A DNA stretch of 56,566 bases from Thermoanaerobaculia bacterium (GTDB lineage Bacteria; Acidobacteriota; Thermoanaerobaculia; Multivoradales; JAGPDF01): contig JAIOJQ010000385.1 of the NCBI GenBank assembly GCA_019911865.1, positions 1 to 56,566 on the forward strand, read 5' to 3'. The translations under genes and the position numbers were made by a program. Each line of letters begins with the position of its first letter. The stretch's first letter is position 1. Of this stretch, positions 4,600 through 55,180 are shown piece after piece. The notes beneath the pieces were generated by a model that saw nothing but the letters and a program-made list of their open reading frames with translations, had not been told where the DNA came from and did not search any database.

Positions 4600-4667
4600 G
4601 CGCCAAAATATAGCTGGTTATGCGCGAAAGTAGATATAAACGGCAATAATTGGGTAAATTCCGCGCC

Positions 4668-10954: not shown

Positions 10955-10979
10955 CCTCGAGGCCTGCCCGCAGGTTTCC

Positions 10980-13277: not shown

Positions 13278-14246
13278 TCAATCCTCGGTGGGCTTGTCGG
13301 GGCTCCAGGTCACGCGGTCGATGCTCGGTTGCTCGGATTGGAGCCGCCTCTCGAGGCGGAACTGGGCTCGGACGTCGAATTCGACAGTCAGGCGCCCTTG
13401 GCGGTCCCAATGTTCGGTCTGATCCGGGTGCCATTTGCGCTCGGCGATACGGGGAGAAGCCGCTTTGGAAAAGGTGATGCGTACGCGGCGGACCGGGGCA
13501 CCGTCGGTCTGGAGGCCGTCGATTCCCTCCCGGACGTAGCGGGAAAGGTCGAAGTCGACCGGGAGTTCGAAGGTCCGCTCGGTCACGGTGGCCGCGCGGA
13601 TGCGGGCGAGCAGGAAAGTGCGGCGCGCCCCGGACCGGTGATCGTGGCCATAGAGGTTCCAATCGCCGTCCGTGACGATGAGGCCGTACGGATCGATTCG
13701 TCGTCGTCGCGCAGGCTCTCCCGGCTTCTGATAGGTGACCGCCAGAGTGAGCGAGCGACGAAGAGAGTCCAGGACGGCGTCCCACACCTTCGCCCGGATA
13801 GCTGCCGCGGGCTGGCCCGTGAATGCGACGCGGGACGTGATCCAGTTTGCCGCGAAGCGCTCGCGTTCCGGGAGCGCGCGCTCAAAGAGTCCGAACGCGC
13901 GGCGTGCAGCAGCCTCCCAGGGCGTGCCGGCGTATTGCCCCAGGGCCTCGCGCATCAGCAGAAGCGCGTGGAGATCGGTCTCGGAAAGCAGAACGGCCGG
14001 TAGAGCGAAAGCAGGCTCGGCGTAGTGCCATCCCTTCCGGTGTTCGTCGTAGACGAGCGGTGCACCGAGCGAGTCCCGCAAGTAGGCGAAATCGCGCTGG
14101 ATCGTGCGGGTCGAAACGCCGAGCTCACGAGCCAGCGAAGCCTGGCTCACTCGCTCCCCGTCCCGCAATCGGGCATCGATCTCGAGCAGGCGACCGAAGG
14201 AGGAGAGGTAATCGCCGGGGCGATGGAGCGTCCTCATTGTTCTCAT
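13278..14246 (-). CDS. WYL-domain transcriptional regulator (HTH-WYL-WCX; BrxR/CapW/PafBC-like)
   Basis: The N-terminal HTH is SQASLARELGVSTRTIQRDFAYLRD. The central region is LTLAVTYQKPGEPARRRRIDPYGLIVTDGDWNLYGHDHRSGARRTFLLARI (WYL-type). There is a C-terminal extension. It is divergent from the AAA+ gene. Confidence 0.85.
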   Translation of the reverse strand: MRTMRTLHRPGDYLSSFGRLLEIDARLRDGERVSQASLARELGVSTRTIQRDFAYLRDSLGAPLVYDEHRKGWHYAEPAFALPAVLLSETDLHALLLMREALGQYAGTPWEAAARRAFGLFERALPERERFAANWITSRVAFTGQPAAAIRAKVWDAVLDSLRRSLTLAVTYQKPGEPARRRRIDPYGLIVTDGDWNLYGHDHRSGARRTFLLARIRAATVTERTFELPVDFDLSRYVREGIDGLQTDGAPVRRVRITFSKAASPRIAERKWHPDQTEHWDRQGRLTVEFDVRAQFRLERRLQSEQPSIDRVTWSPDKPTED

Positions 14247-34164: not shown

Positions 34165-35223
34165 CTAGAAAACCTCCGGAGGTTCTCCCTCCTCGAGCCG
34201 GTAGGACCCGTCCTTCTCGCGCCCAGCGAGCCGGGCCACCCGCGTAACCTGGCGGCGGCCGTCCACGCGTTCGATCTGGACGATCATGTGGACTGTCATC
34301 GAGATCAGGAAACTCTGCGACGGGACGCCGGCCTCCTGCGCGGCGTTGTCGAGCCGCAGCAGGGCGAGCAGCGGGGTCTCGCCATGGATCGTCGCGGCGC
34401 CGCCGCGGTGCGTGGTCCAGGCCTTGAGCATTTCGAGTGCCTCGGCCCCGCGGACCTCGCCCACGATGATCCGGTCGGGCTTCTCGCGCATCGCCTGGTG
34501 GATCAGATGCCGCAGGAGGACCTCCGGCGGCGAAGTCCGGAGGGCTTGTACGTTGCGGGCCGGGCACTGAAGCTCCCGGACGTCCTCAGCGAGGAAGAAG
34601 CGCAGATTCGGCTCGGTGGCGACCATCTCCTGCAGGAGCGCGTTGATGAAGGTCGTCTTGCCCGCCCCCGTGTTGCCCGAGACCAGGATGTTGTCGTGCC
34701 GGCGGAGGGCCTCACGTACGGCCGAGAGGTGAGCCGGTCGAATCACTCCGGCCTCGGCGTAGTCATCGAGCGTGAAGATCCGGGCTGCGCGCTTTCTCAG
34801 GGTGATCGTCGGAGCCGTCGTGATCGGCGGCAGGATGCCGGAGATTCGCGATCCATCGAAAGGGAGCTCGGCGTTGAGGATCGGCGAGTCGGCCGTGATG
34901 CGCGTGCCGAGGTAGGTCGCGATGGTTGCCAGGGCGCTTTCGACGTTTCGGGGCTCGACCCGATCCTCGAGGTCGACGAGGCCGCGATCGAACGCATCGA
35001 ACCAGACGTGGCCGTCGGCGTTGACGCCGATGTCGGTGACGGTCGGATCTTCGAGCAGCTGGGTGATGACGAAGCCGAGCTCGCGCCGGAGCATCGACTG
35101 GATGCGTCTTTCGCGCAGCTCGGCTCCGGAAGTGGCCACGCCCCGGTCGAGCTCGGCAGGGTCGGCGGCAGAGGTCCGGGGGGCGGCAGGGTCTGGGCTC
35201 ATCGGGTCGTCCTCAAGGCACAT
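34165..35223 (-). CDS. trbB: TrbB/VirB11 secretion ATPase
   Basis: ORF 34165..35694 trimmed to ATG 35223, which overlaps the traG stop (TGATG); ATG 35202 is an alternative. Walker A is ILVSGNTGAGKTTF, and …IIVGEVRGAEALEML… is present. Confidence 0.9.
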   Translation of the reverse strand: MCLEDDPMSPDPAAPRTSAADPAELDRGVATSGAELRERRIQSMLRRELGFVITQLLEDPTVTDIGVNADGHVWFDAFDRGLVDLEDRVEPRNVESALATIATYLGTRITADSPILNAELPFDGSRISGILPPITTAPTITLRKRAARIFTLDDYAEAGVIRPAHLSAVREALRRHDNILVSGNTGAGKTTFINALLQEMVATEPNLRFFLAEDVRELQCPARNVQALRTSPPEVLLRHLIHQAMREKPDRIIVGEVRGAEALEMLKAWTTHRGGAATIHGETPLLALLRLDNAAQEAGVPSQSFLISMTVHMIVQIERVDGRRQVTRVARLAGREKDGSYRLEEGEPPEVF

Positions 35224-37343
35224 CAGGCCGCGTCGTGGTAGGGGTTCTTGCTCGCCCGGCGCTTCAGGACCGGGTGCTCGAAATAGCGGATGCGCTGGGT
35301 GCGATAGGGGAGTTCGCCGGCGACCAGGAGCAGCTGCTCGTCGGGTGCGATGCGCCGTACCTCGTCGGGGGTCAGAAGGCGACGACTGGCCTGGCCGAGG
35401 CTCTCTCCATGGCTCTGGTTCGAGGAGCCGACGTGCTTGTCGGAAAACAGGCCGCCGGCGTGCGGGCTGTTCGAACCCTCGTTGAGCGATTGGTTCTCGG
35501 TAAAGACCGTGGTCGTGCCGGCCATCTTCGAGAGGTACTCGGCGGTGAATTCGTCGGCCGTGCCGAAGGCCTGGAGAATGCGGGTGTTGCCGATCAGCGT
35601 CTCCCAGGAGTTCGGATAGAGGCCCTTGAGCTGCGAAAGATCCTGCACGAGCATCCAGAGCGAGATCGAGTAGGCGCGGGCGTAGGCGATGCACTCTTCA
35701 ATCACCGGCAGCCGGCGAAGGGCCGCGAATTCGTCGAGCAGAAACAGTACCCTCCCCACGGTTTCCTTGGGCCGGCGCAGCAATCCGCGCAGCGCCGAAC
35801 CGATCAGAAGCGCCATCCAGCGGCCATGGGAGGCCAGCCGATCTGGCGGCAGCACGAGGTAGACCGTCGACGGGATGAGGCCGAGCTGCCACAAGTCGAA
35901 GGAGGTCTTCGAGAGGCTCTCGACCATCGCCGGCGAATCGAGAAAGCGCGTGTGCTGGTCGGCAGTGGCGAAGATGCCCGAGCGGGTCTTCTCGTCCTGG
36001 GCGCGGATGCGGTCGGCGCTCCACTGGAGCCGTTCGAGGACGGTGGCCACCGGGCCGGTGCCCGCAACCAGCGACCGGATGTGGAGCAGGAGCTCAGCCT
36101 GGCCTCGGGCCGGCAGTCCGCGCTTGGTGGTGTTTACCAGGTGCCGCAGGATGTAGTCCGGGCCGGACTTGGCTCGCCGCTGGTCCTGCTTCGTCCCGAC
36201 GAACTGCGCCTCTTCTTCCCGTTCCTGGTCGTCCATCTGGAGCGACCTGGCCGACTGCGCTCGCACCCGGGCCATGGCGCGCAGTTGATGGATCAGCTCG
36301 GTGCCTCCGAGCGAGAGCAGGCGGCGCACCTCGATCAGGGTTCGGCACGGATCGCCCTTCGGATAGATCGTCGCGACCCAGAGGATGAAGGCGGTCAGGA
36401 GCGCTTCGGCTTGCTCCGTCCAGAACGGCTCGCTGTTGGCGTGGAGCGCCTGCGGGACGAGGATCGAGGCCAGGAGCGCGGCATCGTCCACGCAGGTGTC
36501 GGTGGCCGGATCGAGCCAGTCCATCGGGTTGTAGCAGGCGCGCTGAGGCTTGAGCACCGCATCCCAAGCGTGCCCTTCCGGGGTGCCCCGCAGGCGCTCC
36601 TGACCGGGCTGGTCGGAGCCCACGCCCAGGTAGTCCTCGAGGTCGTTGATTCCGAGCCGTCCGAGGGCGTCGAACGGGTCGAAGGCCACGATCGTCTGCC
36701 CCAGGTAGCGAGCCCGGTACCTCGCCGTGACGGCGAAGTTCTCGCCCTTGAGGTCGGTCACCATGACGGACCCGCCGGCGTAGGCGAGCAGGTTCGGAAT
36801 CACCAGGGAGACGCCCTTGCCCGCGCCGGTCGAGGCGCAGGTGAGCACGTGGGCCTCGCTGTCGGCGCGCAGCAGCTCGCCGCGTGGATTCGTCCCGACG
36901 ACCAAGCCGTACCCGGGATCGAGGAACTGGTCGGGACGGGCCCAGCGCGAAGAGCCGAAGGTATCCGACTGGCCGGACGCCGAAAGCTTGCGGCCCCGCT
37001 TGACCTTGGTGAGCGCGAAGAAGACGACGGCAAGCCCCATGAGGACGAGAGGAAAGGCGTCGACCTCGCCTCGCTGGCCCGCTCGCCTGGGTTGGGCTCT
37101 CTGGGCCTTGGTCGAAGCCACGAGTGCGCCCAGCGGTCCGCCGGAGCTGCGCGGCTTGGCCTCGGCCTTGGCCGACTTCGGCTTGGGCGGCGCGGTAGCC
37201 GCGCGCGGGGTGAGCGCGGCAAGGAGCAAAAGGCCCACGACGCCAAGCGGAATGGCGATCGCGGCGACGCGCGAAAGCGGCGTCACGAAGGTGCGGCGCA
37301 GCCGTGGAAACAGATAGGCGAGGGGCAGTCGGGCTTGGCTCAC
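35223..37343 (-). CDS. traG: TraG/VirD4 type IV coupling protein
   Basis: It has N-terminal TM helices, Walker A LTCASTGAGKGVSLVIPNLL, and LFLLDEFAAL (Walker B). The start overlaps the giant ORF stop by 4 nt. Confidence 0.9.
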   Translation of the reverse strand: MSQARLPLAYLFPRLRRTFVTPLSRVAAIAIPLGVVGLLLLAALTPRAATAPPKPKSAKAEAKPRSSGGPLGALVASTKAQRAQPRRAGQRGEVDAFPLVLMGLAVVFFALTKVKRGRKLSASGQSDTFGSSRWARPDQFLDPGYGLVVGTNPRGELLRADSEAHVLTCASTGAGKGVSLVIPNLLAYAGGSVMVTDLKGENFAVTARYRARYLGQTIVAFDPFDALGRLGINDLEDYLGVGSDQPGQERLRGTPEGHAWDAVLKPQRACYNPMDWLDPATDTCVDDAALLASILVPQALHANSEPFWTEQAEALLTAFILWVATIYPKGDPCRTLIEVRRLLSLGGTELIHQLRAMARVRAQSARSLQMDDQEREEEAQFVGTKQDQRRAKSGPDYILRHLVNTTKRGLPARGQAELLLHIRSLVAGTGPVATVLERLQWSADRIRAQDEKTRSGIFATADQHTRFLDSPAMVESLSKTSFDLWQLGLIPSTVYLVLPPDRLASHGRWMALLIGSALRGLLRRPKETVGRVLFLLDEFAALRRLPVIEECIAYARAYSISLWMLVQDLSQLKGLYPNSWETLIGNTRILQAFGTADEFTAEYLSKMAGTTTVFTENQSLNEGSNSPHAGGLFSDKHVGSSNQSHGESLGQASRRLLTPDEVRRIAPDEQLLLVAGELPYRTQRIRYFEHPVLKRRASKNPYHDAA

Positions 37344-40300
37344 CGGCTGATTCCTTTCGACGGAGCGGCAATGGCACGCGCGGCCGCCGCGGCCGTGCGA
37401 CCGGCAGCCAGCGCGGCGGAGACGAACGGTTTGACCTGGGGCGCGACGAAAGTCATCGCTTTCTGAACCCCCTCGCGGGCGACGAGGCTCGCCAGCCGGA
37501 CGATCTCCTGGGCCTGACCCTGAGAGAGCCGCTCCAGAGCCCCCTGGACCCTGCGACTCGTCTGAGTGAAGTTGAGAGCGGAAAGGGCGGCGTTCGCCGC
37601 GGTGGACACCGGGCTTTGGGCGCCCGCCCCGGGGGCCTTCCCGCCGGGCGAGGGACGCGGCAGCGCCGCGCTCGGTCCTCGCGTGCCTGGAAGGGAAGGC
37701 GCGCGAGCCGGACTCGGAGCGTCCCGGGTGACACCCGGCTGCAAGGCGACCGAACGGTCGCGAGCGAGCGCGCCGAGCGCCGAGCGCGTGGCCGACAGGG
37801 AGGTGGATTTCGCCGTGGCGACGGCGCTTCGCGTCAGCCGCTCCGGATCGTCATCGAGGAGCCGCTCGGCCGCATGGAACGCGATCTGAGCCGTCGTCAG
37901 GATGCGAGCCGTCCTGGCGGCGGCAACCGCCGCCGGCGTGTACGCCTCGGCCGGAAGGTGGCGCGCTGCGCGGGCAGCCTCGGCGGCCTCAAGGTCGAAG
38001 CTCGCACCCTCGGCGCGAAGTTCGCCGAGCCGCTTCTCGAATCGCTCCGCGGCCTCGGCGGGCGCTGGACGCGCACCGAGAGAGCGGTTCTGCTCGCGCG
38101 CCAGGTCCTTGCCCGAACGCTCCAACTGCTCGCGAACCTGTTCCATCTCGACGATCCTCGAGGAGAGCCGGAGAATCTCGTCCCGGGCACCTTCCCAGGA
38201 ATCGGGAAGGGCCAAAGCCGACGTAAGAGGAGCTGCGCCAGGACGGTGCACCTCGAGCGTTGGCGCAGAAGGTCCCGGAGCAGGTGCAGCTGAGCCCACG
38301 TGGTCGAGCCGTTCCAGCGTCGGCCGAGCCGGTTGCGCAGCCCTTTCCGAGGCCTCCGGGGCTTGGCGCACGGCGGCAGGGCCTTCGCGGGCAAGCTCGG
38401 GTTCGCGCGCCTGGTGAACGACCGCAAGGGCGAGCTGGGAACCCAGATTCTGCGGGCGGTCGAGTACGACGGCCAGATCGCGCTCGCTTTTCCCGAAGAC
38501 CAGCTCGACTTGCTCGTTCGGCGTGCCGGCGAGCAGGCGCTGGATCTGGCCGGCGTAGCGGGGTCCGTCGATTTCAACCACGATCGGTCGGCCCTCGCCG
38601 AGGGCCAGGTGCTCGCCGCTGCGCGCATGGGCGACGTAGTGGTGGTCGAGCTCGAGAAGCGGCGTCGGCCCGTCCTTGGGCCCACCCTCGATCCGGATTC
38701 CGCCTCGGGGGTCGAAGCCCGCGATGCGTCCGGACTCGAGCGGCCCTCCCGGCTCGGAGCGGAACCGGACGAAGTCGCCTTGCGCAAAGCTGCGCTCGGC
38801 CGAGCGATACGTGACCATGTGGGCAGCCTCGGCGGGCGCGATCCGTTCGATCCGGACCGCGTTTCCGCCGACCCCCTGTCCGGAGGCCACGGCGGCGAGC
38901 TGCTGCCCTTCCCGGTCCACGGCGACGAGGCGGAAGGCGGACATCGACCCGCCCGGTTCGCGCCGGTAGAGCCAGTCGCCGGGGCGCCAGTGCTCGGCCC
39001 GGAGGGTCTCGGGCGAGAGGGCCGGCACTTTCTCCCGGACTTCGACCCGGACCTGCTCATCGAGGTTCAAGCGGCCGGCGCGGTGGAGATGGGCGCGGAC
39101 CGTGTCCGTGCGCTCGGCAAGCACCTGCCCGGCGCGGTCGGCGTCGAGCGAGAGGTTGGTGACGAGCAGAGCGGGCGCAGGCCCGGGAGCGGCGAGCGCT
39201 GTCGAGGTCGCGCGTACCTCGCGGTCGGAGTCGACCTCGACCACGCGGACCCGCGCAGGTGAGCCCGCAAGCGCCGCCGAGAGGGCGGCCGAAACTTGAA
39301 CGCCCGGATCGTTGGCGGTCGGGCGGCGCCAGAGCGCGGCCAGGGCCGAGCCGGCGTAGCGGCGCTCCGCGGCCGGAATCAAGCGCTCGCCGGCTGTGGC
39401 CGCCAGCAGGGCCGGCCCCCGAGCAGCGAAGGGGGAAAGCTCGGGGTGCCGCGCGGCGAAGACCACTCGCAACCCCCCGGCATGAGCGCGATCGACCAGG
39501 CCGCGAAGCTCGTGGACCGCGAGCCGCTCGGCGCCGTGGACGATGGCTACCGGCGCAACCCGCCCAGCCCCGAACGCCCAGCCGCCGCCTTCGAGGAAGT
39601 ACCGGCGCGAGGCGATCTGTCCGGCGGGAATGCCGGCCTCGAGAAGTTCGCCGCGCTGCTCGAAGCCGGTTGTCACGTGCACGGGATGCCAGCCGCGCCG
39701 CGCGAGTTCGCGGTGGAGACCCACCGCAAAGGGCGTGGCCGCGGACGCTTGCGCGCCGCCATCGCGGCTCGTGACGAACGAGAACTGATGTCGATTCTCG
39801 AGGACCTCGGCGACGGCAGCGCGATCGGCCGGATCGGCAATCGCACCGCGGAGCCGGGTTTCCAGCTCTTGCGGCCGCGCCGAGGCGGGCACGATCGGTT
39901 CGACGTCGCGGCCGCGGGCGATCTGGGCGGCCACGTAGAGCTCCTCGGCGTAGTTGTCCACGCGGGCAAGGCGCGAGCCGTCGGGCGAGAAGACGACGTC
40001 GGCCCTCCGGTGAAGCTGTTCATCGAGCGCTTCGAGCGCGACGCTTCCTCCCGTATGCACCCAGGCGCGAGTCAGCACCTCGTCGAACGCGAAGGCAGGC
40101 GAGCGCTCGGAAAGCTCGGCGAGCGAGCGCGCGATGGCCACCTCCGGATCGTTCGTCGGCCGATGGGAGCCCTCGATCTTCTGGCTCTTCAGGATGGCCT
40201 CGGCGTTCTGAACGAAGGCCTCCCGGCTCTTGCCGTAGCGCTCGAGGTACTCCGTCTCCCGAGCGAATCTGGCGAACAGTTCCGGGCTCTCGGCCTGGAC

Positions 40301-43300
40301 CCTCGCCGCCTCGGTCATCAGGTGCGGGATCGGAGGCACTCGGGGAGGCTCGGGCGGCTGGGGCGGCCGGGAAGCCCCGGAACTGCCGGGCGGCTCGCCC
40401 GGCGAACCGGGTGAGGGCGCCTGCTGCTCCACGGCCGGAAGGGCGGACGGCTCCGGGGGAGGGGCCGCCTGGCGCGCACGCTCGGGCGCGAGCTCTGCGA
40501 CCGCGAAGGCGTGGACGCGGCCGTCACCAGAGTCCCACAGGCGCAGCTGATCGCCGTGGGTCGCCCCGCCATCGAGAGCCATCAACCGATCGGTTGCCGG
40601 CGCGACGCCGGACTCGATCGGCGTGTGACCGAAGAAGACACGCTCGGACACCGGCGGCTCGCCAGCCTGCCACCACGGGACCTTCGCCCCGTCGGCTCGG
40701 GCGACATTCCGAATCGACAGGACGGTTTGCGGCTCCTGATCCTCGAACGAGCGACCCGGGGAGAGTCCCGCGTGAACGACGAGACCTTGCGGCAGGCGCA
40801 GTGCGTGCGGCAGGCGCCCGAGAAAGTCGAGATAGCTGTCGGGAACCGTGCGCGAGCCGGACTCCGCGCCGAAGCTCTCGAAAGTCGCAGCGAGACCGCT
40901 GCCGAGAAACATCCCCTCCTTCTCGCGCCCGTGAAGTGCCAGCAGCCGCTGTTCGTGATTTCCGCGAACGCCCAGGAAGCTCTCGCCGAGACTCTGGACG
41001 TAGTCGAGCACCTGCTTCGAGTCAGGCCCCCGGTCGACCAGGTCGCCGACCGAGACCAGCACATCGCCCCGGTCCGGGCGAAACTCCAGCCGCTCGAGCG
41101 CGCGCTTGAGTGTCCCGAGCTCACCGTGGACGTCACCGACTACGAGCACGCGTCGCCCCGCGAGGGCTTGGCGCGCGTCGTCGACGACCAGGCCCGCGGA
41201 AGTTGCGCTCCGCTCGACCGGAGCCACGGTCGACCGCGCCGAGGCGGGCGCCACGGGCAAGGACGCATCGAACTCGGTCAGGTCCAGCACGTCGGGGGCA
41301 TCGGCCATCCGTGCGGCTACCGGCGACCTGCCGGGTGGGCGAGCTTCTCCCTCACGGGTCTTGGCCGTTGCCTCTGGAGCAGGCTCCTCCCGAGCCCGGG
41401 CGGGTGAGTCGATGCGGCGTACCTGCCCGGCGTTGAGGGCAGCCCAAATGTGCTGGCCACTTTGGACGGAATAGGTCGAGTCGTAGCCGCCGGCGAGCAG
41501 CCGATCGCGAACGGCCATCATGGCCTCGGCGCGATGATCGTCGTTGTCGAGATCGAAACCGGGGCGGGAGCGGGCGAAGGCCGCGCCGGCGGCGTCGAGA
41601 AAGGAGGCCCCCGCGATGCGGTCTCCAGAAAGCAGGTCCCCACGCTCGCGAGCGAGAGCGACGGCGGCCGGATCCAGCGTCGCTAGGTAGTCGGCCGGGT
41701 AGCCGTGGAGGAGCGAAAACGGCCGGGCAATCGAGACCTCGAGCTCGACGACTTCCTTCGAGTGAGGCCCCGGCGATGCGGCGAACTGTTCGGCGAGTTC
41801 GCGGTGCTGCGTGAAGTTGATACCAGCGACCAGTCCGCGACGTCGTCCGTCGACGGACAGGTCATCGGCTACGGCTTGTCCTCGGTAGGAGGATCGTCCG
41901 GGGACCGGTAGTGGGACTCCGTCGGGGGATACGAAAACGGTGGCGGGTAGCCCAAGGCCTGGGACAGCGCGAGGACGCCCATCGGGCCGGTCTCTTCGAG
42001 CTTCGCTCGCAGCTCCGGGGGCCTCTGGGCGAGGTACTCCTCCCAAGTTGGAAGCGGCTTGGAATCGGGGGTCGGCGGGTTCATCGGGGCTCCTGAGTGT
42101 AGTTGAGGGGGCCGAGAGGACCTCGGTCGGGGCGGCAGGCGGCGCCGCTGGCTCGGTCCATCCGGCGAGCGGCGCGCCGACAGCGACTCTCGGAACGGCC
42201 TCGTGGGCAGAACGCCGAGTGGGCTCGGACTCGGATCGCAGCTCGAGCTCGTCACGCAGTCGGAACCGAATGGCGCGAGGATCAAGCCCTTCCGAAGCGA
42301 GCCTCTCCACGTAGTCGGCTGCGTCCCCTTTGGGCGCAAGCCAGGCAGGCGCCGTGGCAATGGATACCTTGGAGACAATGGATCCGAGGGCGCCGCCCAC
42401 GGCGGCGGCTTGCCTCGCGCCGGCCTCGTCCTTGTCGGGCCAGACGATGACCGAGGCGCCGCGCAGGAACTCCAGATTGCGCTGCTGGGGTCGGTTCGAG
42501 GCGCTGTGCGTGCCGTAGGCCTGGAGGCCGAGTGCGGCAAGGGCGTCGGCGGCCTTCTCGCCCTCGACGAGAAAGACCGGACGGGCCGGATTGAAGGCCA
42601 CCTCCGAGCGGTAAAGAGGCGCATCGGCCGCGTGGAGCTTCTCGGCCTCGGGCGTTCCGCGGCGATTGAGCGACCAGCCACCGCGAAACCAACGGACCTG
42701 CTTGGTGCCGGTTTCGTTGCCGGGCGCGTCCTTGTCCCAACGCGCCTTGTAGGCAAAGAGGTTCCCGTCTCGATCTCGAATGGCCCAGACGTGCTGCGGC
42801 GTACCGAAAGTCGGATGCCGGAGCTTGTAGGGATCCGGCCAGGCCTTCATCGGCGTCCAAGCGACGGGACTGCGCTCGACCTCGTGCCTCGAGGGTTCAC
42901 TGCGCCGGACCTCGAACGAGGGCGCGTCGCTCTTGAAGGTGTCGTAGCTGACGCCGAGAGCGCCCAGCACGCGCTCGTGGCTGCAGCCGGCGTAGCAGTG
43001 GAGTAGCGGCTTGCCATCGCCGCCGGTACCGATCGACAGACTTCGGCGGCCGCTCTTGGCGCCGTCCTTGTGGCCCGGGCAGAAGGCCTGAAACTGGTGG
43101 GAAGGGCCCGTCGGCTTGAAGCCACCCGAGTCGAGCAGGCGGCGAACCTGGTCGACCGCGTCGGGGGCGTAGACGCGCCTCGAGAGCGCGCGCGACTCGG
43201 GACTGGACGGCGAGGAAGGCCCGCTCATCGATGGAACTCCTGCAGTTGGTGGGGAAACGGGGGGCGAGGGCGCAGGCTCGCTCAGCGGCCCGGCGCTGGG

Positions 43301-46300
43301 GCTTCGCTCGTCGCCCGATCGATCGCCGGCAGCGGCTCCAGCAGCGCCTTCTTGTAGCTCGCCACCGCGAACCAACCGCCGAGCCAGCCCCCGACCATCG
43401 CCAGGATCAGCAGCAGCAGCGCCGCCGCCGCGTACTCCGCCCAGAACCTTTTGCTCGGCGCCAGAGCGATCTTGAGAGCCTGCTTGTGCTCGTTGGCCTC
43501 CTTGCGCAGGAGCGTCTGGTGCTGGAGCGCCTTGTTCAGACCGTCCTGCACGCGCTCGCGCAGCTTCGAAAACTCCGAGGTCATCGTCGGTATCGCCGCG
43601 TCCACCTTGGCGAGCTGCGCCGAGAGCGTCTGCGGCGTCTCTCCCGGATGCTCGGGCAACTCGAAGGCCGTCGCCAGCTTCTGGACCTGCTCCTCGATCC
43701 TCTGGAGGCGGGGAGCGACGGTGCCCAGGTCGTCGGTCGAACTCTCGGAGGTCATCAGCAGCCTCGCGAGTGCCTGGACGATCTCTGCCTGGAGACCCAG
43801 CGTCTCCTCCACCTGAGCCTGGGTGTGTTGGAGGAGGCCCAGAACCGCCTCCGGCGCTGCCGCCGGGGTTTCCGTGGCCACTGGTGCCGATTGGCCATGG
43901 ATCGGGACCGTCGGGAGGTGAGTCGTCTTGGCGAAGGGACCGTTCGAGCCGGACATAGCGGAGATCCTCCGGAGTCAGTGCGACAGTTGGCGAAAGCGTG
44001 GCGGCGATCCATTCGGCGCGAAGCCGTGTGTCGGTGCTCTCGAGGGCCTCGAGGCGTCCGAGAAGAAGTCCTTTCGACTCCTCGGGTCGATCGAGGGCGG
44101 GGATGTCGAGCGCGAGCATTTGCCGCACGGTGTCGACGCTTTCCATGTAGCGCGGCAGGTCGCCCGCCACGGCGGCGGCCTCGACGTTCTCGAGATTGAT
44201 CGAGCCGTAGAGAAGGCGTCGCTGGTGTTCCGTTCGCGTGAGCCCGGGAGGGACCGTGGCGCGAAGTTCGCGGTGAATCTCCCGGGCGAAGGCCAGCGTC
44301 GCCTCGGCGTTGAGCAGGTAGCGTGAGGGCACGCCGGACCGCTCCATCTGCCAGGACGCGAAGGCGGAAACCACCGGTGAGGGCAGGCGCCGAAGATCGT
44401 CGGCTCGATCCCGGTGAACGCTTGTGTACTGACCCCGAAGCGCCTCGGCAAGCGTCGTCCACGCCCGCAGGCGTTGCTCCGCCTCGCTCGCTTGCTCGAA
44501 GCGCGTCCAGGCCTGGTAGGCCAGGTGGCTCAGGCCCGGCGTCTCCTGATCCATCGCGTCGAGCGGCCGGGCGTGCGCGGCGAGCGAGGCGATCAGCTGC
44601 TCGGTCGCGGCGCGAGCGCGGCCCTCGTCGCGGACGATGCCATTGGCAAGCGGTGCCGCCGCGGCTCCCGAACTCGAGCTTGCCGCCAGAGCCATCGGAC
44701 GAAGGTGGGGCGCCTCGAACAGGGTGGCGAGCTGCTGTGGGTCGTCCGTGACGACCGCGACGTGGTACCTCGAGCGGGTCAAGTCGACGGTCGGGTTGGC
44801 CGAGGAGAGCACCTGGGCCTGTTCTCCCGTGTGGTAGGCCGCCAGGACCTCGTCCTTGGTGATGGATTGGGCCGAGTGCGAAGTGACCGAATAGCCGAAG
44901 TCGAACGTATTCAGATGCTGCGAGGAAAGCTGGACGCGGATCGGCTCGCCATGGGCTCGGCGTCGATCGAGCTCGAAGACGGCGATCTGCTCGCTGGCAC
45001 TCGCTGGGTCCGGCCGAACCTCGACGAGCGTGGCCAGGTCGCCGTTGTTGATGCTCTCGGCTCTCTCGGTCTTGCGAAACTGCACGCGGTCGCCGACGAC
45101 GAGCGTGAGCTTGGACATCTCGAGCGCGGACACCTGGCCCGACAGCTCTCGAACGGAGACCGTGGCTTCCGTGCCGTCGGGAAGCGCGAGGGTCACGCTC
45201 GCGGTGTTGGAATCGGCCCGCCGGACCTCGACATAGGAGTCCCGGCGAAGCCGAAGATCGCCGTGGCCGGTTGGAAAGTGGAGAAAGAGCGGATGCGGAT
45301 CTCGGGAGTTGTTGGCGCGAAGGTAAGCCGAGATATCGCCGGAGTCCGCTGCCGTCCAGGAGAGATCCCGCAGCCGCAAGAGTGAGATCTGACCGCGGCG
45401 TGGATCGAGCTCTCCAAGAGGCCCGAGCCGGAGCTCCCGGACGATTCCAGCGAACTCGTCGCGCGCAGCGTGCGTCGGAAAGACCACCAGGCTCTCGTCG
45501 CGCCGTTCCGGAGGGTTTGCCAGGTAGAGCGCCGCGACAGCCTCGCGCTGGACGTAGGGGTCCTGGACGACGATGAGGTTGCGGGCGGCCGTATCGGGCC
45601 GAGCGAGGCTTCGGTAGTCCTCGAGTCGCCCGGTGAGCTTCTCGCGCTTCTTGGCAACTTCGGCCGAGCCGAGCTCCGGCAGGGCGCAGAGCGCCTCTCG
45701 GGTGCGCTCGATCCCCCGAGCCGCGACAAAGGCCAAAAGTTCGCGGCGGCGGGTCACGAGAGCGGAGTCCGATCGAGAGGTCGCGCGCAGCTCGTAGAGG
45801 GCCCTGCCGGGCCGCTGGTGCGTGGCAAACGCAGCCACGCGCAGCGCATTGGCATCGGCCGGGGCGCGTCGACTCGTGGGATCGGGCGCGTGCTGGCGAT
45901 TGAGCTCCTGGATCCGGTAGATCGGCACGCCGAAAGCCGAGAGCTGCTGGGGGATCGAGCCCGCGGGGACTGCGTGATGTTGCTGGCGATCGCCCACCGC
46001 GTAGACCTTGGCGCCGGCGTGAAGGGCCATGCGGGCGAATCGATTCCAGTCCTCCTGACCGGTCTGGCCGACCTCGTCGAGAATCCAGAGCTCCCGCGAG
46101 GCCAGATCCTTCGGCAGTGGCCGCCGGATGAAGCCCTGTACCGTCTCGGCTCCGACGCCGTACTCGCCGAGAGATTCGACCGCGCGCCGGGTTGGCGCAA
46201 AGAAGCGGACCGTCCAGCCCTCGCGCCGGGCGAGCGCCTGCAGCGCTTCGAGTGATCGAGACTTTCCGGCGCCGGGGCCGGCCTCGAGCATGGCGATCGA

Positions 46301-49063
46301 ACTCGTGCCCCGCAGCGCCTGGCCGAGGGCGAGCAGCTGCTGGTCGGTCAGGTTCTTGAGGGCGGCCGGTTCGGGACTTGCGGCCTGCTGCTCCTGGTAC
46401 CAGCGGCGAAGGGATTCAAGGTCCCGCACGGTCGCGGGCGCGATTGCCTGCGGCCGGGCCATGAGCTGCGTCATGAGGCTGTAGTTGTCGGTTTCAGCCG
46501 CGCGCGCCCCTTGCGTGGTCAGTTGGTCTTTCGAGTGCGGCAGCAGGCCATGGAGCCGGCGCGCGATCGCCGCGTCGACCGCGCGCGTCGTGGCGCGGAT
46601 CGCCTCGTCCTGGCGAAGGCCCGAAACTCGCAAGAGCCGAATCAAGGCGGTCCTCTGGAGCTCGCCGCGGGAGAAGACGGAGTTGCGCTCGGCCAGGCGG
46701 GCTACGGCGTACTCGACGCTCGCTTTGGCCGTCGGCGGCAAAGGCCGCCTCTCGTCCGGGCTGGCGGGCGAGGAACGCAGTTGCGACGCGCTCGATCCTC
46801 GCGTCCCGGGAGGCGGAGCCAGGGTGACCCCGGGCGTATCGAGTCCGAATGTCTGCCGAGCCTCGTCCGCAAACGCTCCAGGGTGGGAGGCAGCCAGCGC
46901 CGTGAGGGCGTCGGATTGAATCTGCCGGGCATGAGCTTCGAGCAAGATGCCGTGAGGTGGCTGCGTGATCGAGGCGAGCAGGATCTCGGCAGCCGGAGCG
47001 GATGCCGCGAACTGCTCGGGACTGCGGACCGCGAGAGTGCCTCGCGCCGAGTCGGCCACCAGCAGAAGCGCCTGACCGCGGCCCTCCGATCGGGCAAGGG
47101 AAGAGACACGCCTGGCCACTCGATCGAGAAAGGAAGGGTGCTCGACGGCGCGCACGGCCTTGGCGCGAAGGCCGGTGCCGGAGGGCAGCACGATGTGGTC
47201 GGCGCTCTCGACCGCGAGCAAGGCGGTCGCCTCGGCCCGAGGGGGTGCGGGTTCGCTCGGATCCTCGCCGGCGATGACGAGGGTGCCGCGACGGTCCGGG
47301 TCGAGCGCCAGGCTTCGCTCGCGGGCGGCGCGGGAGAGCGAGAGCGCATCGAATCCGAGCTGACGCCCCTTCTGTTGCCACTGCGGGATCAGGGCTTCCC
47401 AGCGGATGCGCCCGGGTTTGGCCTCGCGGGTCGTCAAGACGGCGTGGTCGCGCAGCTGCTGGCGGGTCCGTGGGGTGGTCCTGGACGGATCCAAGCCGGC
47501 CGCGCGCATGCGCTCGGCTTGCGCCGCGGTGATCTTGGTCGCACGTGAGGAGAAGGCTCGAGCGACGCTCTCTGGAACATCGGCGAGGCGAGCGACGAGC
47601 GTTTGGGGGTCGATCTCGACGCGGTAGCCCAGCGCGCGAAGCTCGGAGGCAAGCTGCGCGGAGTAGAGCTGCTCGTAGTGGCGAACGTGCTGCCGGATGA
47701 GAAGCGGATTGAGCGGACCGTAACCTCGACCCCGACGGGCGAGGTTGAGCACGAAGGCGTGGGTATGCAGCTGCGGATCGAGTGCCCGGGAAAAGCCGTG
47801 GTCGAACCGGGCTACCAGGAACTCTCCGGTCGCGACGAAGGCACGTCTCGACTCGGTGCCGGCGTCGCGCTCCATCGCCGCCAGAGCGGTGAGTACGGCT
47901 CGCCGATGGGCTTCGAGGATGCGGGAGTCCTCACCGAGCAGCGCCTGGACGGAGACCGACTTGTCCGGGGCGAAGATGTAGTCGAAGCCGGCGCGCCGGG
48001 TCTCGGGCGTCTCGCCGCGCGCAGGTTGCGCGAGTGTCCGAGCTCCGTCGGGGCTTCGCCCTTCTGCGAGGTTCTCGAAGGCTCGCGCCTCGATGGGCTC
48101 GTCGGACGAAAGGCCGAGGCGAGCCGCGAGCTTGCCGGTCCACAACCCCTCCCCAGAATCGAGCATGAGGCCCGTGCTCTCGCCCGGAACGAACGGCGGA
48201 GGCGAGCCGGGAGTTCGGAAGACGGGAGCCAGGCCCCGAAGCTGGGCGTCCGCAAGGACGCCGCCGAGCTCGGACGGAGCGAGCTCGAGCCTGCGCACTT
48301 CGAGGGCGCCGAAGCTGGCGCTCGATGGGTCGGCTGCGGCTTGAAGCAAGAGCGCCGCGCCCGGCTGCAGGATGAGCTCGCGGCCGCCCCCGAGAGGGAT
48401 GGCAAACCCCGTGAGACCCGACTCGGCGAGAACGCCGGGCTCGGCCAGCGGCGAGCTGGCTTGAAGGCGGGTGAGAAGAGGTGCGAGTGCGTCCCGGGGC
48501 TCACCCGATTGCGGGACCGGAAGATGGCGAGCCTCCGGGTCGAACTCCGGATAGAGCGCCTGGATTCGCGAGGAGAAGGCCGCGAGCGTTTCCGGAGTCG
48601 CCGGAATCCACCAGCGCCGAGTTTCGAAACCTCTGGACTGCTCGTAGAGGATTCCACCCGAGGTGAGCCGAAGGACTTCCTCGCCGCCGATTCTCACGGA
48701 AGGACCCGAGGCTTGTCCCGGCCCAGTGCTCCCGATCCCGAGGTAAACGCCGTGCGCCTGAAGGTGGGCTGTGATCTGGCGCAGCTCGGCAAGGGCCACC
48801 GCTTCGCCCGGAGTCAGAGACTCGGGAGAGCGACCGACCGGGAGGAGGTTGGGGGAGTCGGGGTCGGCTGGGCCCGGACGGCCCGCACGAACCCAGCCGG
48901 GCCGCGCCTCTTCGGCGAGGGCCGCGTCGACCGCCGCGGTCGCGGCGGCGACATCTTGTCGGAGCGAGGGCGCCACCTCGGCGGCGCCCTGGGCGAGCTG
49001 CTCGCGGTAGTAGCTCTTGGCGTGACCCGCGGAGAGGCCGCCCGTTCCGTGCACAACGCCCAT
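37340..49063 (-). CDS. Stop-free 3,907-codon ORF: MOBF relaxase + RecD-like helicase + Zn/Toprim primase + unknown domain + PPP metallophosphatase + helicase-like tail. Probably composite (see findings).
   Basis: A single frame with no stop over 11,724 nt. The recognisable domains are listed as separate features. Two internal segments (43282..43956, 41869..42084) have about 50% third-position GC in this frame, against about 80-85% elsewhere. Confidence 0.6.
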   Translation of the reverse strand: MGVVHGTGGLSAGHAKSYYREQLAQGAAEVAPSLRQDVAAATAAVDAALAEEARPGWVRAGRPGPADPDSPNLLPVGRSPESLTPGEAVALAELRQITAHLQAHGVYLGIGSTGPGQASGPSVRIGGEEVLRLTSGGILYEQSRGFETRRWWIPATPETLAAFSSRIQALYPEFDPEARHLPVPQSGEPRDALAPLLTRLQASSPLAEPGVLAESGLTGFAIPLGGGRELILQPGAALLLQAAADPSSASFGALEVRRLELAPSELGGVLADAQLRGLAPVFRTPGSPPPFVPGESTGLMLDSGEGLWTGKLAARLGLSSDEPIEARAFENLAEGRSPDGARTLAQPARGETPETRRAGFDYIFAPDKSVSVQALLGEDSRILEAHRRAVLTALAAMERDAGTESRRAFVATGEFLVARFDHGFSRALDPQLHTHAFVLNLARRGRGYGPLNPLLIRQHVRHYEQLYSAQLASELRALGYRVEIDPQTLVARLADVPESVARAFSSRATKITAAQAERMRAAGLDPSRTTPRTRQQLRDHAVLTTREAKPGRIRWEALIPQWQQKGRQLGFDALSLSRAARERSLALDPDRRGTLVIAGEDPSEPAPPRAEATALLAVESADHIVLPSGTGLRAKAVRAVEHPSFLDRVARRVSSLARSEGRGQALLLVADSARGTLAVRSPEQFAASAPAAEILLASITQPPHGILLEAHARQIQSDALTALAASHPGAFADEARQTFGLDTPGVTLAPPPGTRGSSASQLRSSPASPDERRPLPPTAKASVEYAVARLAERNSVFSRGELQRTALIRLLRVSGLRQDEAIRATTRAVDAAIARRLHGLLPHSKDQLTTQGARAAETDNYSLMTQLMARPQAIAPATVRDLESLRRWYQEQQAASPEPAALKNLTDQQLLALGQALRGTSSIAMLEAGPGAGKSRSLEALQALARREGWTVRFFAPTRRAVESLGEYGVGAETVQGFIRRPLPKDLASRELWILDEVGQTGQEDWNRFARMALHAGAKVYAVGDRQQHHAVPAGSIPQQLSAFGVPIYRIQELNRQHAPDPTSRRAPADANALRVAAFATHQRPGRALYELRATSRSDSALVTRRRELLAFVAARGIERTREALCALPELGSAEVAKKREKLTGRLEDYRSLARPDTAARNLIVVQDPYVQREAVAALYLANPPERRDESLVVFPTHAARDEFAGIVRELRLGPLGELDPRRGQISLLRLRDLSWTAADSGDISAYLRANNSRDPHPLFLHFPTGHGDLRLRRDSYVEVRRADSNTASVTLALPDGTEATVSVRELSGQVSALEMSKLTLVVGDRVQFRKTERAESINNGDLATLVEVRPDPASASEQIAVFELDRRRAHGEPIRVQLSSQHLNTFDFGYSVTSHSAQSITKDEVLAAYHTGEQAQVLSSANPTVDLTRSRYHVAVVTDDPQQLATLFEAPHLRPMALAASSSSGAAAAPLANGIVRDEGRARAATEQLIASLAAHARPLDAMDQETPGLSHLAYQAWTRFEQASEAEQRLRAWTTLAEALRGQYTSVHRDRADDLRRLPSPVVSAFASWQMERSGVPSRYLLNAEATLAFAREIHRELRATVPPGLTRTEHQRRLLYGSINLENVEAAAVAGDLPRYMESVDTVRQMLALDIPALDRPEESKGLLLGRLEALESTDTRLRAEWIAATLSPTVALTPEDLRYVRLERSLRQDDSPPDGPDPWPIGTSGHGNPGGSAGGGSGPPPTHPGSGGGDAGSPGRDRPGTREAADDLREFDRRPGHRRSPPPEDRGAGPEAGDGLRVARASGRDAADALGAARQGGRGDTDDDLGVFEAARARAGRSEQGAPAPDAPAQGGQRAQAGSQDRSGAEQKVLGGVRGGGAAAADPGDGRGLARRLVRGGELQEGAAGAAAGDRSGDERSPSAGPLSEPAPSPPVSPPTAGVPSMSGPSSPSSPESRALSRRVYAPDAVDQVRRLLDSGGFKPTGPSHQFQAFCPGHKDGAKSGRRSLSIGTGGDGKPLLHCYAGCSHERVLGALGVSYDTFKSDAPSFEVRRSEPSRHEVERSPVAWTPMKAWPDPYKLRHPTFGTPQHVWAIRDRDGNLFAYKARWDKDAPGNETGTKQVRWFRGGWSLNRRGTPEAEKLHAADAPLYRSEVAFNPARPVFLVEGEKAADALAALGLQAYGTHSASNRPQQRNLEFLRGASVIVWPDKDEAGARQAAAVGGALGSIVSKVSIATAPAWLAPKGDAADYVERLASEGLDPRAIRFRLRDELELRSESEPTRRSAHEAVPRVAVGAPLAGWTEPAAPPAAPTEVLSAPSTTLRSPDEPADPRFQAASNLGGVPRPEAPGAASEARRDRPDGRPRAVPGLGLPATVFVSPDGVPLPVPGRSSYRGQAVADDLSVDGRRRGLVAGINFTQHRELAEQFAASPGPHSKEVVELEVSIARPFSLLHGYPADYLATLDPAAVALARERGDLLSGDRIAGASFLDAAGAAFARSRPGFDLDNDDHRAEAMMAVRDRLLAGGYDSTYSVQSGQHIWAALNAGQVRRIDSPARAREEPAPEATAKTREGEARPPGRSPVAARMADAPDVLDLTEFDASLPVAPASARSTVAPVERSATSAGLVVDDARQALAGRRVLVVGDVHGELGTLKRALERLEFRPDRGDVLVSVGDLVDRGPDSKQVLDYVQSLGESFLGVRGNHEQRLLALHGREKEGMFLGSGLAATFESFGAESGSRTVPDSYLDFLGRLPHALRLPQGLVVHAGLSPGRSFEDQEPQTVLSIRNVARADGAKVPWWQAGEPPVSERVFFGHTPIESGVAPATDRLMALDGGATHGDQLRLWDSGDGRVHAFAVAELAPERARQAAPPPEPSALPAVEQQAPSPGSPGEPPGSSGASRPPQPPEPPRVPPIPHLMTEAARVQAESPELFARFARETEYLERYGKSREAFVQNAEAILKSQKIEGSHRPTNDPEVAIARSLAELSERSPAFAFDEVLTRAWVHTGGSVALEALDEQLHRRADVVFSPDGSRLARVDNYAEELYVAAQIARGRDVEPIVPASARPQELETRLRGAIADPADRAAVAEVLENRHQFSFVTSRDGGAQASAATPFAVGLHRELARRGWHPVHVTTGFEQRGELLEAGIPAGQIASRRYFLEGGGWAFGAGRVAPVAIVHGAERLAVHELRGLVDRAHAGGLRVVFAARHPELSPFAARGPALLAATAGERLIPAAERRYAGSALAALWRRPTANDPGVQVSAALSAALAGSPARVRVVEVDSDREVRATSTALAAPGPAPALLVTNLSLDADRAGQVLAERTDTVRAHLHRAGRLNLDEQVRVEVREKVPALSPETLRAEHWRPGDWLYRREPGGSMSAFRLVAVDREGQQLAAVASGQGVGGNAVRIERIAPAEAAHMVTYRSAERSFAQGDFVRFRSEPGGPLESGRIAGFDPRGGIRIEGGPKDGPTPLLELDHHYVAHARSGEHLALGEGRPIVVEIDGPRYAGQIQRLLAGTPNEQVELVFGKSERDLAVVLDRPQNLGSQLALAVVHQAREPELAREGPAAVRQAPEASERAAQPARPTLERLDHVGSAAPAPGPSAPTLEVHRPGAAPLTSALALPDSWEGARDEILRLSSRIVEMEQVREQLERSGKDLAREQNRSLGARPAPAEAAERFEKRLGELRAEGASFDLEAAEAARAARHLPAEAYTPAAVAAARTARILTTAQIAFHAAERLLDDDPERLTRSAVATAKSTSLSATRSALGALARDRSVALQPGVTRDAPSPARAPSLPGTRGPSAALPRPSPGGKAPGAGAQSPVSTAANAALSALNFTQTSRRVQGALERLSQGQAQEIVRLASLVAREGVQKAMTFVAPQVKPFVSAALAAGRTAAAAARAIAAPSKGISR
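40500..41165 (-). other. Domain: PPP-family (calcineurin-like/ApaH-PrpE-like) metallophosphoesterase
   Basis: RRVLVVGDVHGELGTL, LVSVGDLVDRGPDS, LGVRGNHEQRL, GLVVHAGL, VFFGHTP. Confidence 0.8.
41869..42084 (-). CDS. Alternative-frame (+1) small ORF nested in the giant ORF
   Basis: AGGAG-N5-ATG at 42084. 71 aa: MNPPTPDSKPLPTWEEYLAQRPPELRAKLEETGPMGVLALSQALGYPPPF... Third-position GC is 83% here and 53% in the giant frame (hand count). Pro-rich, so less certain. Confidence 0.4.
   Translation of the reverse strand: MNPPTPDSKPLPTWEEYLAQRPPELRAKLEETGPMGVLALSQALGYPPPFSYPPTESHYRSPDDPPTEDKP
42090..43228 (-). other. Module: DNA primase (CHC2-like zinc motif + Toprim) with its own SD and ATG at 43228
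   Basis: AGGAG-N8-ATG at 43228 (MSGPSSPSS...). FQAFCPGHKDG...LLHCYAGCSHERVLGALG; VFLVEGEKAADALAALG; VIVWPDKDEAGARQ; PKGDAADYV. Confidence 0.8.
43282..43956 (-). CDS. Alternative-frame (+1) gene nested in the giant ORF: coiled-coil protein with C-terminal TM helix
   Basis: GGAGGA-N8-ATG at 43956. 224 aa of normal composition (…LQRIEEQVQKLATAFELPEHP…KEANEHKQALKIAL…WAEYAAAALLLLILAMVGGWLGGWFAV). Hand-counted third-position GC is about 85% in this frame and about 50% in the giant frame. Confidence 0.65.
   Translation of the reverse strand: MSGSNGPFAKTTHLPTVPIHGQSAPVATETPAAAPEAVLGLLQHTQAQVEETLGLQAEIVQALARLLMTSESSTDDLGTVAPRLQRIEEQVQKLATAFELPEHPGETPQTLSAQLAKVDAAIPTMTSEFSKLRERVQDGLNKALQHQTLLRKEANEHKQALKIALAPSKRFWAEYAAAALLLLILAMVGGWLGGWFAVASYKKALLEPLPAIDRATSEAPAPGR
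44700..46400 (-). other. Domain: RecD/TraA-like P-loop helicase
   Basis: IAMLEAGPGAGKSRSLEAL (46262..46290), LWILDEVGQ, VYAVGDRQQH, FDFGYSVTSHSAQSITKDEV (about 44832..44910). Confidence 0.8.
47450..49063 (-). other. Domain: TrwC/TraI-type (MOBF) relaxase
   Basis: AKSYYREQ near the N-terminus; GLWTGKLAARLGL; RAGFDYIFAPDKSVSVQAL; ARFDHGFSRALDPQLHTHAFVLN (compare TrwC FRHETSRERDPQLHTHAVILN). About 280 aa are inserted between the YY segment and W.GK..LGL. Confidence 0.85.
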
Positions 49064-54745: not shown

Positions 54746-55180
54746 TCAGGCCGCGACCTCGACCTGCTCGTCGAACTCCTCGAAGCCCTCGACCTCGCCC
54801 GCGTCGGCCTCGACCGGCGTCGGCGCGCCTTGCGGGCGAGGACCGAGCACCTGGAAGGCCTGGCCGGCCAGCTGGACCTGCTTGGCGTTGAACTCGACGC
54901 CGTTCGCGTCGATCGCCTTGAGCGACCGGTAGCTGAGCGCCGCATCCAGGGCGACGAGGCGCCCCTTGGTCACCAGCGCGCAGACGCGCTCGGCCGAACG
55001 ACCGAAGAAGGCCACGTCGTGGAAGGCCGTGCGCTCCTGGCGCACGCCCGCCTTGTCCTTGAAGACGGTGTTGGTCGCCACCGTCAGGTGCGCGAGCTTC
55101 GTGCCGTTACCGAGCACCTTGAGCTCGGGGGTGCGCACCGCGTTGCCGATCAGGGTGACCTGGTTGTTGATCTGGGCCAT
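54746..55180 (-). CDS. ssb: Single-stranded DNA-binding protein
   Basis: MAQINNQVTLIGNAVRTPELKVLGNGTKLAHLTVATNTVFKDKAGVRQERTAFHDVAFFGRSAERV...KGRLVALDAALSYRS, with an acidic tail (EVEGFEEFDEQVEVAA). Confidence 0.9.
   Translation of the reverse strand: MAQINNQVTLIGNAVRTPELKVLGNGTKLAHLTVATNTVFKDKAGVRQERTAFHDVAFFGRSAERVCALVTKGRLVALDAALSYRSLKAIDANGVEFNAKQVQLAGQAFQVLGPRPQGAPTPVEADAGEVEGFEEFDEQVEVAA

Follow-up and report, generated by a model that had tools for sequence, protein, structure and literature searches.

Proteins that travel with conjugative DNA act before plasmid genes can be expressed, and they therefore shape the establishment of the plasmid in a new host. The cargo known so far ranges from primases and anti-restriction domains to ADP-ribosyltransferases, methylases and a 2H phosphoesterase. 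Among the described proteins closest to the one reported here is MobA/RepB of RSF1010, which is about 700 amino acids (aa) long. This product joins a relaxase and a primase part, and mobB lies within mobA/repB in a different frame (PMC2200642). So-called polyvalent proteins, with many enzymatic domains per polypeptide, are thought, and in some cases have been shown, to enter the recipient with the DNA, the cases given including relaxases, TraC1 and Sog (Iyer et al., 2017; PMC5512222). The phosphoesterase of bacterial Pnkp from Clostridium thermocellum (CthPnkp) and lambda phosphatase both hydrolyze 2′,3′-cyclic nucleotides (PMC2190708), so this chemistry is common to their branch of the metallophosphoesterases. 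Here we describe a conjugative locus on a contig of a Thermoanaerobaculia bacterium (JAIOJQ010000385.1), the whole of which, 56,566 nt, was analyzed and is called the window below. The genome is metagenome-assembled (458 contigs, completeness 92.6%, contamination 6.2%). In the window a single giant open reading frame (ORF), P0001, places a metallophosphoesterase domain in frame with a conjugative relaxase.

In our best reading, P0001 would encode a polyvalent conjugative protein with, in this order, a MOBF relaxase, a TraI-type helicase, a primase-like part, a middle domain, the phosphoesterase and a degenerate TraI-like tail. The explanation that we prefer for the phosphoesterase, tentatively and with somewhat more doubt than conviction, is delivery by a type IV secretion system (T4SS) and action on 3′-phosphate or 2′,3′-cyclic-phosphate groups of nucleic-acid ends or nucleotides. 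The parts of the giant gene and the gene that follows it are:

37340-49063, minus strand: giant ORF P0001, 3,907 codons (ORF list and translation)
47363-48151, minus strand: TrwC/MOBF relaxase domain, aa 305-567 (Pfam PF08751, E 2.1e-53)
45884-46351, minus strand: TraI/RecD-type helicase core (AAA_30), aa 905-1060 (PF13604, E 8e-32; PF13245; PF22232)
42194-43261, minus strand: primase-like part, aa ~1935-2290, a Cys/His zinc-finger-like stretch and then an acidic Toprim-like stretch
41258-41881, minus strand: middle domain, conserved and with no assigned family, aa ~2395-2602, directly upstream of the phosphatase
40499-41167, minus strand: binuclear metallophosphoesterase domain, aa 2633-2855 (family matches, motifs, structure model and tree)
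40319-40498, minus strand: Pro/Ala-rich linker between phosphatase and tail, aa 2856-2915
37343-40318, minus strand: tail, aa 2916-3907, whose first ~645 aa resemble a degenerate TraI/RecD-type helicase module
35223-37343, minus strand: type IV coupling protein (T4CP) gene (Pfam T4SS-DNA_transf, E 1.9e-72)

The phosphoesterase domain and its active site

A first-pass annotation of this DNA had reported a phosphatase with five intact hallmark motifs at 40500-41165. All five were found there on the minus strand, at aa 2643-2815 (window positions 40619-41137):

41123-41137, minus strand: motif GDVHG, aa 2643-2647
41027-41047, minus strand: motif GDLVDRG, aa 2673-2679
40952-40963, minus strand: motif GNHE, aa 2701-2704
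40766-40777, minus strand: motif VHAG, aa 2763-2766
40619-40630, minus strand: motif GHTP, aa 2812-2815

By profile score the domain is a member of the calcineurin-like metallophosphoesterase superfamily. PF00149 (Metallophos, cut-off 21.5 bits) matched the whole of P0001 at aa 2638-2819 with 60.7 bits and the excised domain (aa 2620-2870) with 67.3 bits (E 3.1e-18). The strongest family match was to phrog_246, ‘NinI-like serine-threonine phosphatase’ (E 4e-36, 126 bits, residues 18-226 of the 251-aa query). Homologs were collected from 1.84 billion representative proteins with HMMER (filter-only search); 12,958 matches had E<=0.001, of which just 2 reached E<=1e-30. For the alignment, 80 of 150 listed matches were used, chosen for a single matched stretch and mostly moderate length, and 70 were omitted. 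The metal- and phosphate-binding motifs D-x-H, G-D-x-x-D-R, G-N-H, H and G-H form a complete set in the domain, and the D, H, D, H, H and H motif columns were invariant across the 81 rows of this alignment.

Nine residues are essential in CthPnkp: Asp187, His189, Asp233, Arg237, Asn263, His264, His323, His376 and Asp392 (PMC3675462). All nine have counterparts here (D2644, H2646, D2674, R2678, N2702, H2703, H2764, H2813 and D2831), as mapped by motif position and alignment and with no direct alignment to the CthPnkp structure, PDB 4J6O. Eight of these nine catalytic columns were invariant or nearly so in the 81 rows, and the Arg column held R in 67 rows and K in 14. The nine residues are also all retained in P0002, a second version of the giant protein. 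The structure prediction and Foldseek comparison that had been proposed as a check were carried out with the same alignment: the AlphaFold2 model of the domain reached a pLDDT of 91.8 and a pTM of 0.90, it has the beta-sandwich fold of binuclear phosphoesterases, and its top structural matches were 2QJC, 4J6O, ApaH and lambda phosphatase. These are the same structural neighbors as those given for CthPnkp in its own paper (PMC3675462). The isoelectric point of the domain, 5.75, lies within the 4.9-6.9 of the reference proteins and shows no difference from them. Judged by sequence and predicted fold, the domain is a metallophosphoesterase with a complete active site, belonging to the lambda-phosphatase/ApaH/Pnkp branch, and it is apparently active.

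Nearest relatives and candidate substrates

Among the matches listed, the closest sequences to the domain were the phosphoesterase modules of phage-type kinase-phosphatase-RNA-ligase proteins, at 36-41% identity over the whole domain. A Pfam architecture scan covered 16 of the 150 listed HMMER matches, and six of the 16 carried an N-terminal AAA_33 kinase before Metallophos, five of these six with a T4 Rnl1-type RNA ligase as well. The five best matches comprised three kinase-bearing proteins (two of the three with an RNA ligase), one stand-alone protein and one with an unassigned N-terminal extension. One kinase-phosphatase-ligase protein, P0003, matched phrog_8238 ‘RNA ligase’, a phage family of 737 positions, from its kinase region through its ligase.

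Phylogenetic analysis pointed the same way. In a quick tree of 88 rows (the 81 aligned rows and seven housekeeping copies from related genomes) the query stood beside a clade to which every kinase-fused row belonged (SH-aLRT 91). A more careful tree of 63 rows kept 59 of the 88 (the query, the 27-row clade, 24 others and the seven housekeeping copies) and added lambda NinI and E. coli ApaH, PphA and PphB from annotated records. In its maximum-likelihood (ML) topology the query was sister to a 28-row clade holding all 11 kinase-fused rows (N-terminal P-loop), with both branches at 97/92. We consider 3′-phosphate and 2′,3′-cyclic-phosphate ends to be the likeliest targets because the nearest relatives are end-healing modules of kinase-phosphatase-RNA-ligase proteins, and the proposed reaction would be their Mn2+/Ni2+-dependent hydrolysis on nucleic-acid ends or nucleotides.

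Several results weigh against this placement and the chemistry drawn from it. No curated NCBIfam cut-off was reached by the domain, whether for ApaH, PrpA/B, PrpE or Pnkp, and the tree rows were themselves taken from the query’s own best matches. The approximately unbiased (AU) test rejected neither a grouping of the query with ApaH (dlnL 19.0, p 0.185) nor one with NinI/PphA/PphB (dlnL 24.3, p 0.067). Proteins, too, are dephosphorylated by lambda phosphatase, which belongs to the same branch (PMC3675462). Finally, no kinase or ligase is fused to the domain, and no RNA ligase or polynucleotide kinase was found by Pfam among 39 window ORFs, so a full RNA-repair pathway is not encoded here. The domain differs from bacterial Pnkp in several respects: the three-module architecture is absent, the bacter_Pnkp model TIGR04075 scored 38.7 bits against a cut-off of 750, the domain is embedded in a relaxase-primase protein, and the AU tests leave room for other placements. 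Since these tests keep both alternatives, and since the clade groups for them were named after the tree was seen, affinity with RNA-repair-type modules is our preferred placement and is not proven.

ApaH-like activity, meaning hydrolysis of Ap4A, of RNA Np4 caps or of other nucleotide second messengers of recipient defense, the idea put forward first in the first-pass annotation, is in our judgment unlikely. It is suggested by the highest-scoring NCBIfam model, ApaH-type PRK00166 (NF001204, 67.3 bits), by PDB sequence matches with 2QJC (‘putative diadenosine tetraphosphatase’, E 1.3e-17) and ApaH entries at the top, by the AU result above, and by the proposal of nucleotide-signal degradation for a 2H module that lacks a ligase (PMC5512222). 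However, the ApaH models align only with the N-terminal third of the domain (~76 residues, aa 2640-2716) and fall far under their cut-offs, PRK00166 at 67.3 against 176 and TIGR00668 (apaH) at 44.7 against 222.85. E. coli ApaH also grouped with the relatives’ housekeeping proteins of 260-310 aa, at 100/100 and away from the query in the 63-row ML tree, and the host genome carries its own separate homolog on another contig. Neither the phosphatase nor the middle domain matched a PADLOC family. In 59 of 60 related genomes only ordinary copies were present, at 27-54% identity and mostly in frames of ~250-460 aa (maximum 1,230 aa). The earlier label ‘calcineurin-like/ApaH-PrpE-type’ thus holds for its first half, the metallophosphoesterase, and fails for its second, the scores being those just given for ApaH and 22.2 against a cut-off of 340 for PrpE (NF010148). 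The domain also differs in these respects from the ApaH-like 2QJC of T. brucei.

A protein Ser/Thr/Tyr phosphatase like NinI or PrpA/PrpB, acting on recipient or element proteins and countering, for example, kinase-based defense or stress signaling, seems similarly improbable to us. The domain shares with lambda NinI and E. coli PrpA/PrpB a compact core of ~220 aa, the same motifs and carriage on mobile elements. Its best family match is the NinI-like phrog_246, the PrpA-type NF008516 was the only NCBIfam model to align over the full domain (aa 2636-2841), and the AU test, at p 0.067, leaves the grouping standing. However, NF008516 scored 58.6 against a cut-off of 326 and the PrpB-type NF007425 47.4 against 332, and phrog_246 is a broad family with no curated cut-off, to which the kinase-phosphatase-ligase protein P0003 matches at E 1.2e-39. 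NinI, PphA and PphB, which are stand-alone proteins, formed a separate clade (100/100) in the 63-row ML tree, and lambda phage was absent from the 29 phage records matched by tblastn at E 1e-5. Lambda phosphatase is moreover active on 2′,3′-cyclic nucleotides (PMC2190708), so the substrate does not follow from the family name.

Continuity of the reading frame

We infer that the phosphoesterase is translated as one chain with the relaxase. The giant frame has no in-frame stop in 3,907 codons, and the domain lies in frame both with the upstream primase-like part and, as originally described, with a tail of ~1,000 aa downstream. Third-position GC (GC3) in the giant frame was 0.87 in the linker upstream of the domain, 0.81 in the domain, 0.82 in the Pro-rich linker and 0.84 in the tail. 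The value of about 82% reported earlier for the Pro-rich linker was reproduced over aa 2856-2915, although GC3 discriminates only weakly there because positions 1 and 2 are also high (0.88/0.72/0.82 by codon position) and the linker is rich in Pro and Ala. Over aa 2603-2916 the other two sense frames hold 3 and 4 stops.

The gene was also compared with a second version. In another run, a 54,952-nt contig covers the gene from end to end; it shows 567 substitutions over 12,401 nt, a single 3-nt deletion and no frame-breaking indel, and the protein P0002 (3,906 aa) is a 94% identical version of P0001. Amino-acid differences between P0001 and P0002 number 9 in the 251 domain residues, 1 in the Pro-rich linker and 224 in 3,907 residues overall. 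These differences are uninformative on frame-specific selection, because synonymous changes are invisible in them and because, throughout the gene, changes at first positions pass for synonymous ones in the shifted frame.

Part of the evidence speaks for more than one product. Over aa 1703-1927, in the region joining helicase and primase-like part, GC3 of the giant frame falls to 0.48, and a nested ORF there has a GC3 of 0.87 in its own frame:

43282-43956, minus strand: nested ORF of 224 codons in a shifted frame, beneath giant-frame aa ~1703-1927

Its translation is coiled-coil-like with a C-terminal hydrophobic helix and had no Pfam, PHROG or PADLOC family match. A second dip in GC3, weaker, at 0.55, lies between the primase-like part and the middle domain (aa 2321-2394; 41882-42103, minus strand). 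Further, the protein P0153 (993 aa, on a 5,415-nt contig), 72% identical, covers only the tail and starts at a Met aligned to M2916, which could point to a tail gene of its own or to an internal start. The earlier statement that the fusion looks genuine is accordingly borne out by the frame that stays open in the 94% identical contig and is qualified by this relative, in which the tail is called separately. The term ‘relaxase/primase polyprotein’ is weakened by the junction from relaxase to primase, which crosses a region with its coding signal in another frame.

At the second dip, GC at position 1 is ~0.87 over aa 2341-2391 and a 71-codon ORF coincides with it (~41869-42084, minus strand) in the same shifted frame as the nested ORF. 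The dip could be a small nested gene, a relic or mere linker composition.

These observations could be read to mean that the region yields several products, a relaxase-helicase, the nested small protein, a primase-to-phosphatase protein and a separate tail, the frame being open only because stops are rare at 68-70% GC; the phosphatase would then lie outside any transferred relaxase polyprotein and act in the donor or have no transfer role. The two different start calls for the gene in NCBI (the nr database holds the protein at 3,907 aa and also at 3,785 aa) and the many long off-frame ORFs in the window fit this idea. Against it, a ribosome starting at M1 must read through, the frame is maintained in the diverged contig, the other sense frames around the domain are closed, and no Shine-Dalgarno-like purine run precedes the ATG of M2916 in the window sequence. 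Nested genes are compatible with a genuine fusion protein because RSF1010 has such a layout, with relaxase and primase in one gene and a small other-frame gene in the joining region (PMC2200642); unlike P0001, its relaxase is MOBQ and not MOBF, and it is without helicase, phosphatase or tail. A C-terminal product alone would still have phosphatase and middle domain in one piece, given the co-linearity seen in another relative, P0011 (410 aa, on a 2,396-nt contig). There the middle domain is followed by the linker and then by the first third of the phosphatase, with identities of 73% for the phosphatase stretch and 66% for the middle-domain query. Separate products leaving the phosphatase out of conjugative transfer are thus distinctly improbable.

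Past this stretch P0011 switches abruptly to a histidine-kinase HATPase_c domain, which could reflect chimeric assembly or else a rearrangement in nature that cut the phosphatase short.

The fused modules and the conjugative neighborhood

The N-terminal part of P0001 is readily assigned. The MobF model NF041492 matched aa 305-570 with 178.7 bits (cut-off 100), identifying a MOBF relaxase, and the helicase carries the Walker A motif GPGAGKS at aa 929-935. The primase-like part had no Pfam match; PRK07078 aligned to aa 2092-2253 (E 2.8e-12, below cut-off), and in tblastn it matched, at 28-30% identity, plasmid genes with the annotations ‘phage/plasmid primase, P4 family’ and ‘CHC2 zinc finger domain-containing protein’.

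For the middle domain no Pfam match was obtained at E<=1. In a protein atlas based on language-model features it resembled clusters with PF18760 (ART-PolyVal, an ADP-ribosyltransferase family of polyvalent proteins) on 22-35% of their members, at a score of 0.92 and with 171 features. A six-frame search found no PF18760 match at E<=10, and the AlphaFold model was poor (pLDDT 53.9) and unusable for a structure search. These searches thus did not confirm ART-PolyVal, toward which the language-model lead points weakly.

The tail has neither a Walker A motif nor a Pfam match. Atlas features of its first ~645 aa (38384-40318, minus strand) linked it to AAA_30/AAA_19/TraI_2B clusters (0.97, 219 shared), and a weak internal match to the C-terminal part of the active helicase was seen (E 0.15). 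A vestigial helicase domain that binds single-stranded DNA (ssDNA) exists in F TraI. The tail may likewise be a vestigial helicase or ssDNA-binding domain, and possibly carries a T4SS translocation signal. In a contig from run X11, 1-nt deletions at 39921, 39924 and 39929 jointly restore the frame after three codons; the tail thus varies locally in another population.

The stop codon of P0001 overlaps the start of the T4CP gene, and homologs of VirB11, VirB4, VirB8, VirB9 and VirB10 follow, then ParB-like and SNase-like genes (all by Pfam). P0001 thus heads a T4SS operon. With relaxase, helicase, primase-like part and phosphoesterase in one open frame upstream of T4CP and VirB genes, the predicted product falls among the polyvalent proteins of Iyer et al. 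(2017), which it resembles in its many enzymatic domains per polypeptide, its position next to a T4SS, its Toprim-type primase part, its expected route of transfer with the DNA and its possession of a phosphoesterase module, there a different one, 2H (PMC5512222). It differs from them in that the polyvalent part is here in frame with the relaxase-helicase itself. Other genes on the same contig, cargo and accessory, are:

2393-3151: DUF1508 protein
4051-4599: DUF6933 protein
4650-5885: STAND-like AAA_16 ATPase
6256-7116: DUF5677 protein
10102-10509: Phd/YefM antitoxin
10884-12131: GAF-GGDEF diguanylate cyclase
13278-14246: HTH-WYL regulator, divergent from the AAA ATPase that follows
14322-15698: AAA ATPase, divergent from the HTH-WYL regulator
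54746-55180: SSB gene, upstream of the relaxase gene

Distribution and proposed role in the recipient

Near-identical sequence was found in bioreactor, sludge and bioanode metagenomes, in at least 21 runs from 11 studies, although 7 of the 21 runs may be the source of the contig itself. Beyond these the architecture is rare, which speaks against the preferred explanation. Word-index protein searches matched no other protein of 2,148-6,838 aa besides P0002, and among shorter homologs of aa 2380-3907 only P0153 was found. In 400 further genomes of this class the tail gave no match, and a tblastn search of PLSDB with aa 1925-3907 likewise returned no homolog of it, the matches being generic primases and stand-alone metallophosphoesterases at 28-36% identity. 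Searches of genome contigs gave a single 29-residue match with the tail and nothing useful with the T4CP, and searches of metagenome contigs with the alignment of middle domain and phosphatase, or with P0153, gave no match. In the literature, none of the papers listed for a relaxase with a metallophosphatase or calcineurin-like domain was on such a fusion, none of the papers listed for metallophosphoesterase with conjugation and anti-defense contained the word metallophosphoesterase, and the terms calcineurin, phosphatase and metallophosph had 0 occurrences in the main text of the polyvalent survey (PMC5512222). Polyvalent proteins themselves are known, and a phosphoesterase module of this type in a polyvalent conjugative protein appears to be previously undescribed.

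We infer both a substrate and a transfer into recipients. The giant protein, or a C-terminal product of it, would be exported with the transferred strand through the element’s own T4SS, in a manner analogous to relaxases and Sog/TraC1 primases, and the phosphoesterase would act in the recipient during establishment. Such delivery is plausible because the gene heads a T4SS operon and because transfer of relaxases and primases is known (PMC5512222). The outcome could be that blocked 3′ ends are cleared, or that the products of defense RNases or nucleases are removed. For the 2H phosphoesterase module without a ligase partner, the polyvalent survey suggested a role as an RNase or degrader of nucleotide signals and not in RNA repair (PMC5512222). 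The same reasoning may be applied to the present domain, because it has no fused kinase or ligase and none was found among the 39 ORFs. A more far-reaching possibility, which we regard as somewhat unlikely, is a phosphoesterase tethered to the incoming strand by relaxase, primase and TraI-like ssDNA-binding tail, which at the point of DNA entry heals 3′-phosphate or 2′,3′-cyclic-phosphate ends or destroys the nucleotide products of defense nucleases. It would form a new class of T4SS-delivered counter-defense, borrowed from phage-type RNA-repair proteins.

If the protein is not transferred, the locus would be an uncommon domain fusion of an otherwise ordinary kind, in a rare element known from metagenomes of engineered ecosystems. 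If it is transferred and active, a new enzymatic activity would be added to the arsenal of conjugative cargo, and the domain may be a new kind of enzyme sent into recipients with the DNA. Conjugation would then also be linked to the end-healing chemistry that phages use against RNA-cutting defenses, and lambda-type phosphatases, whose natural role is still unclear, would gain a testable context.

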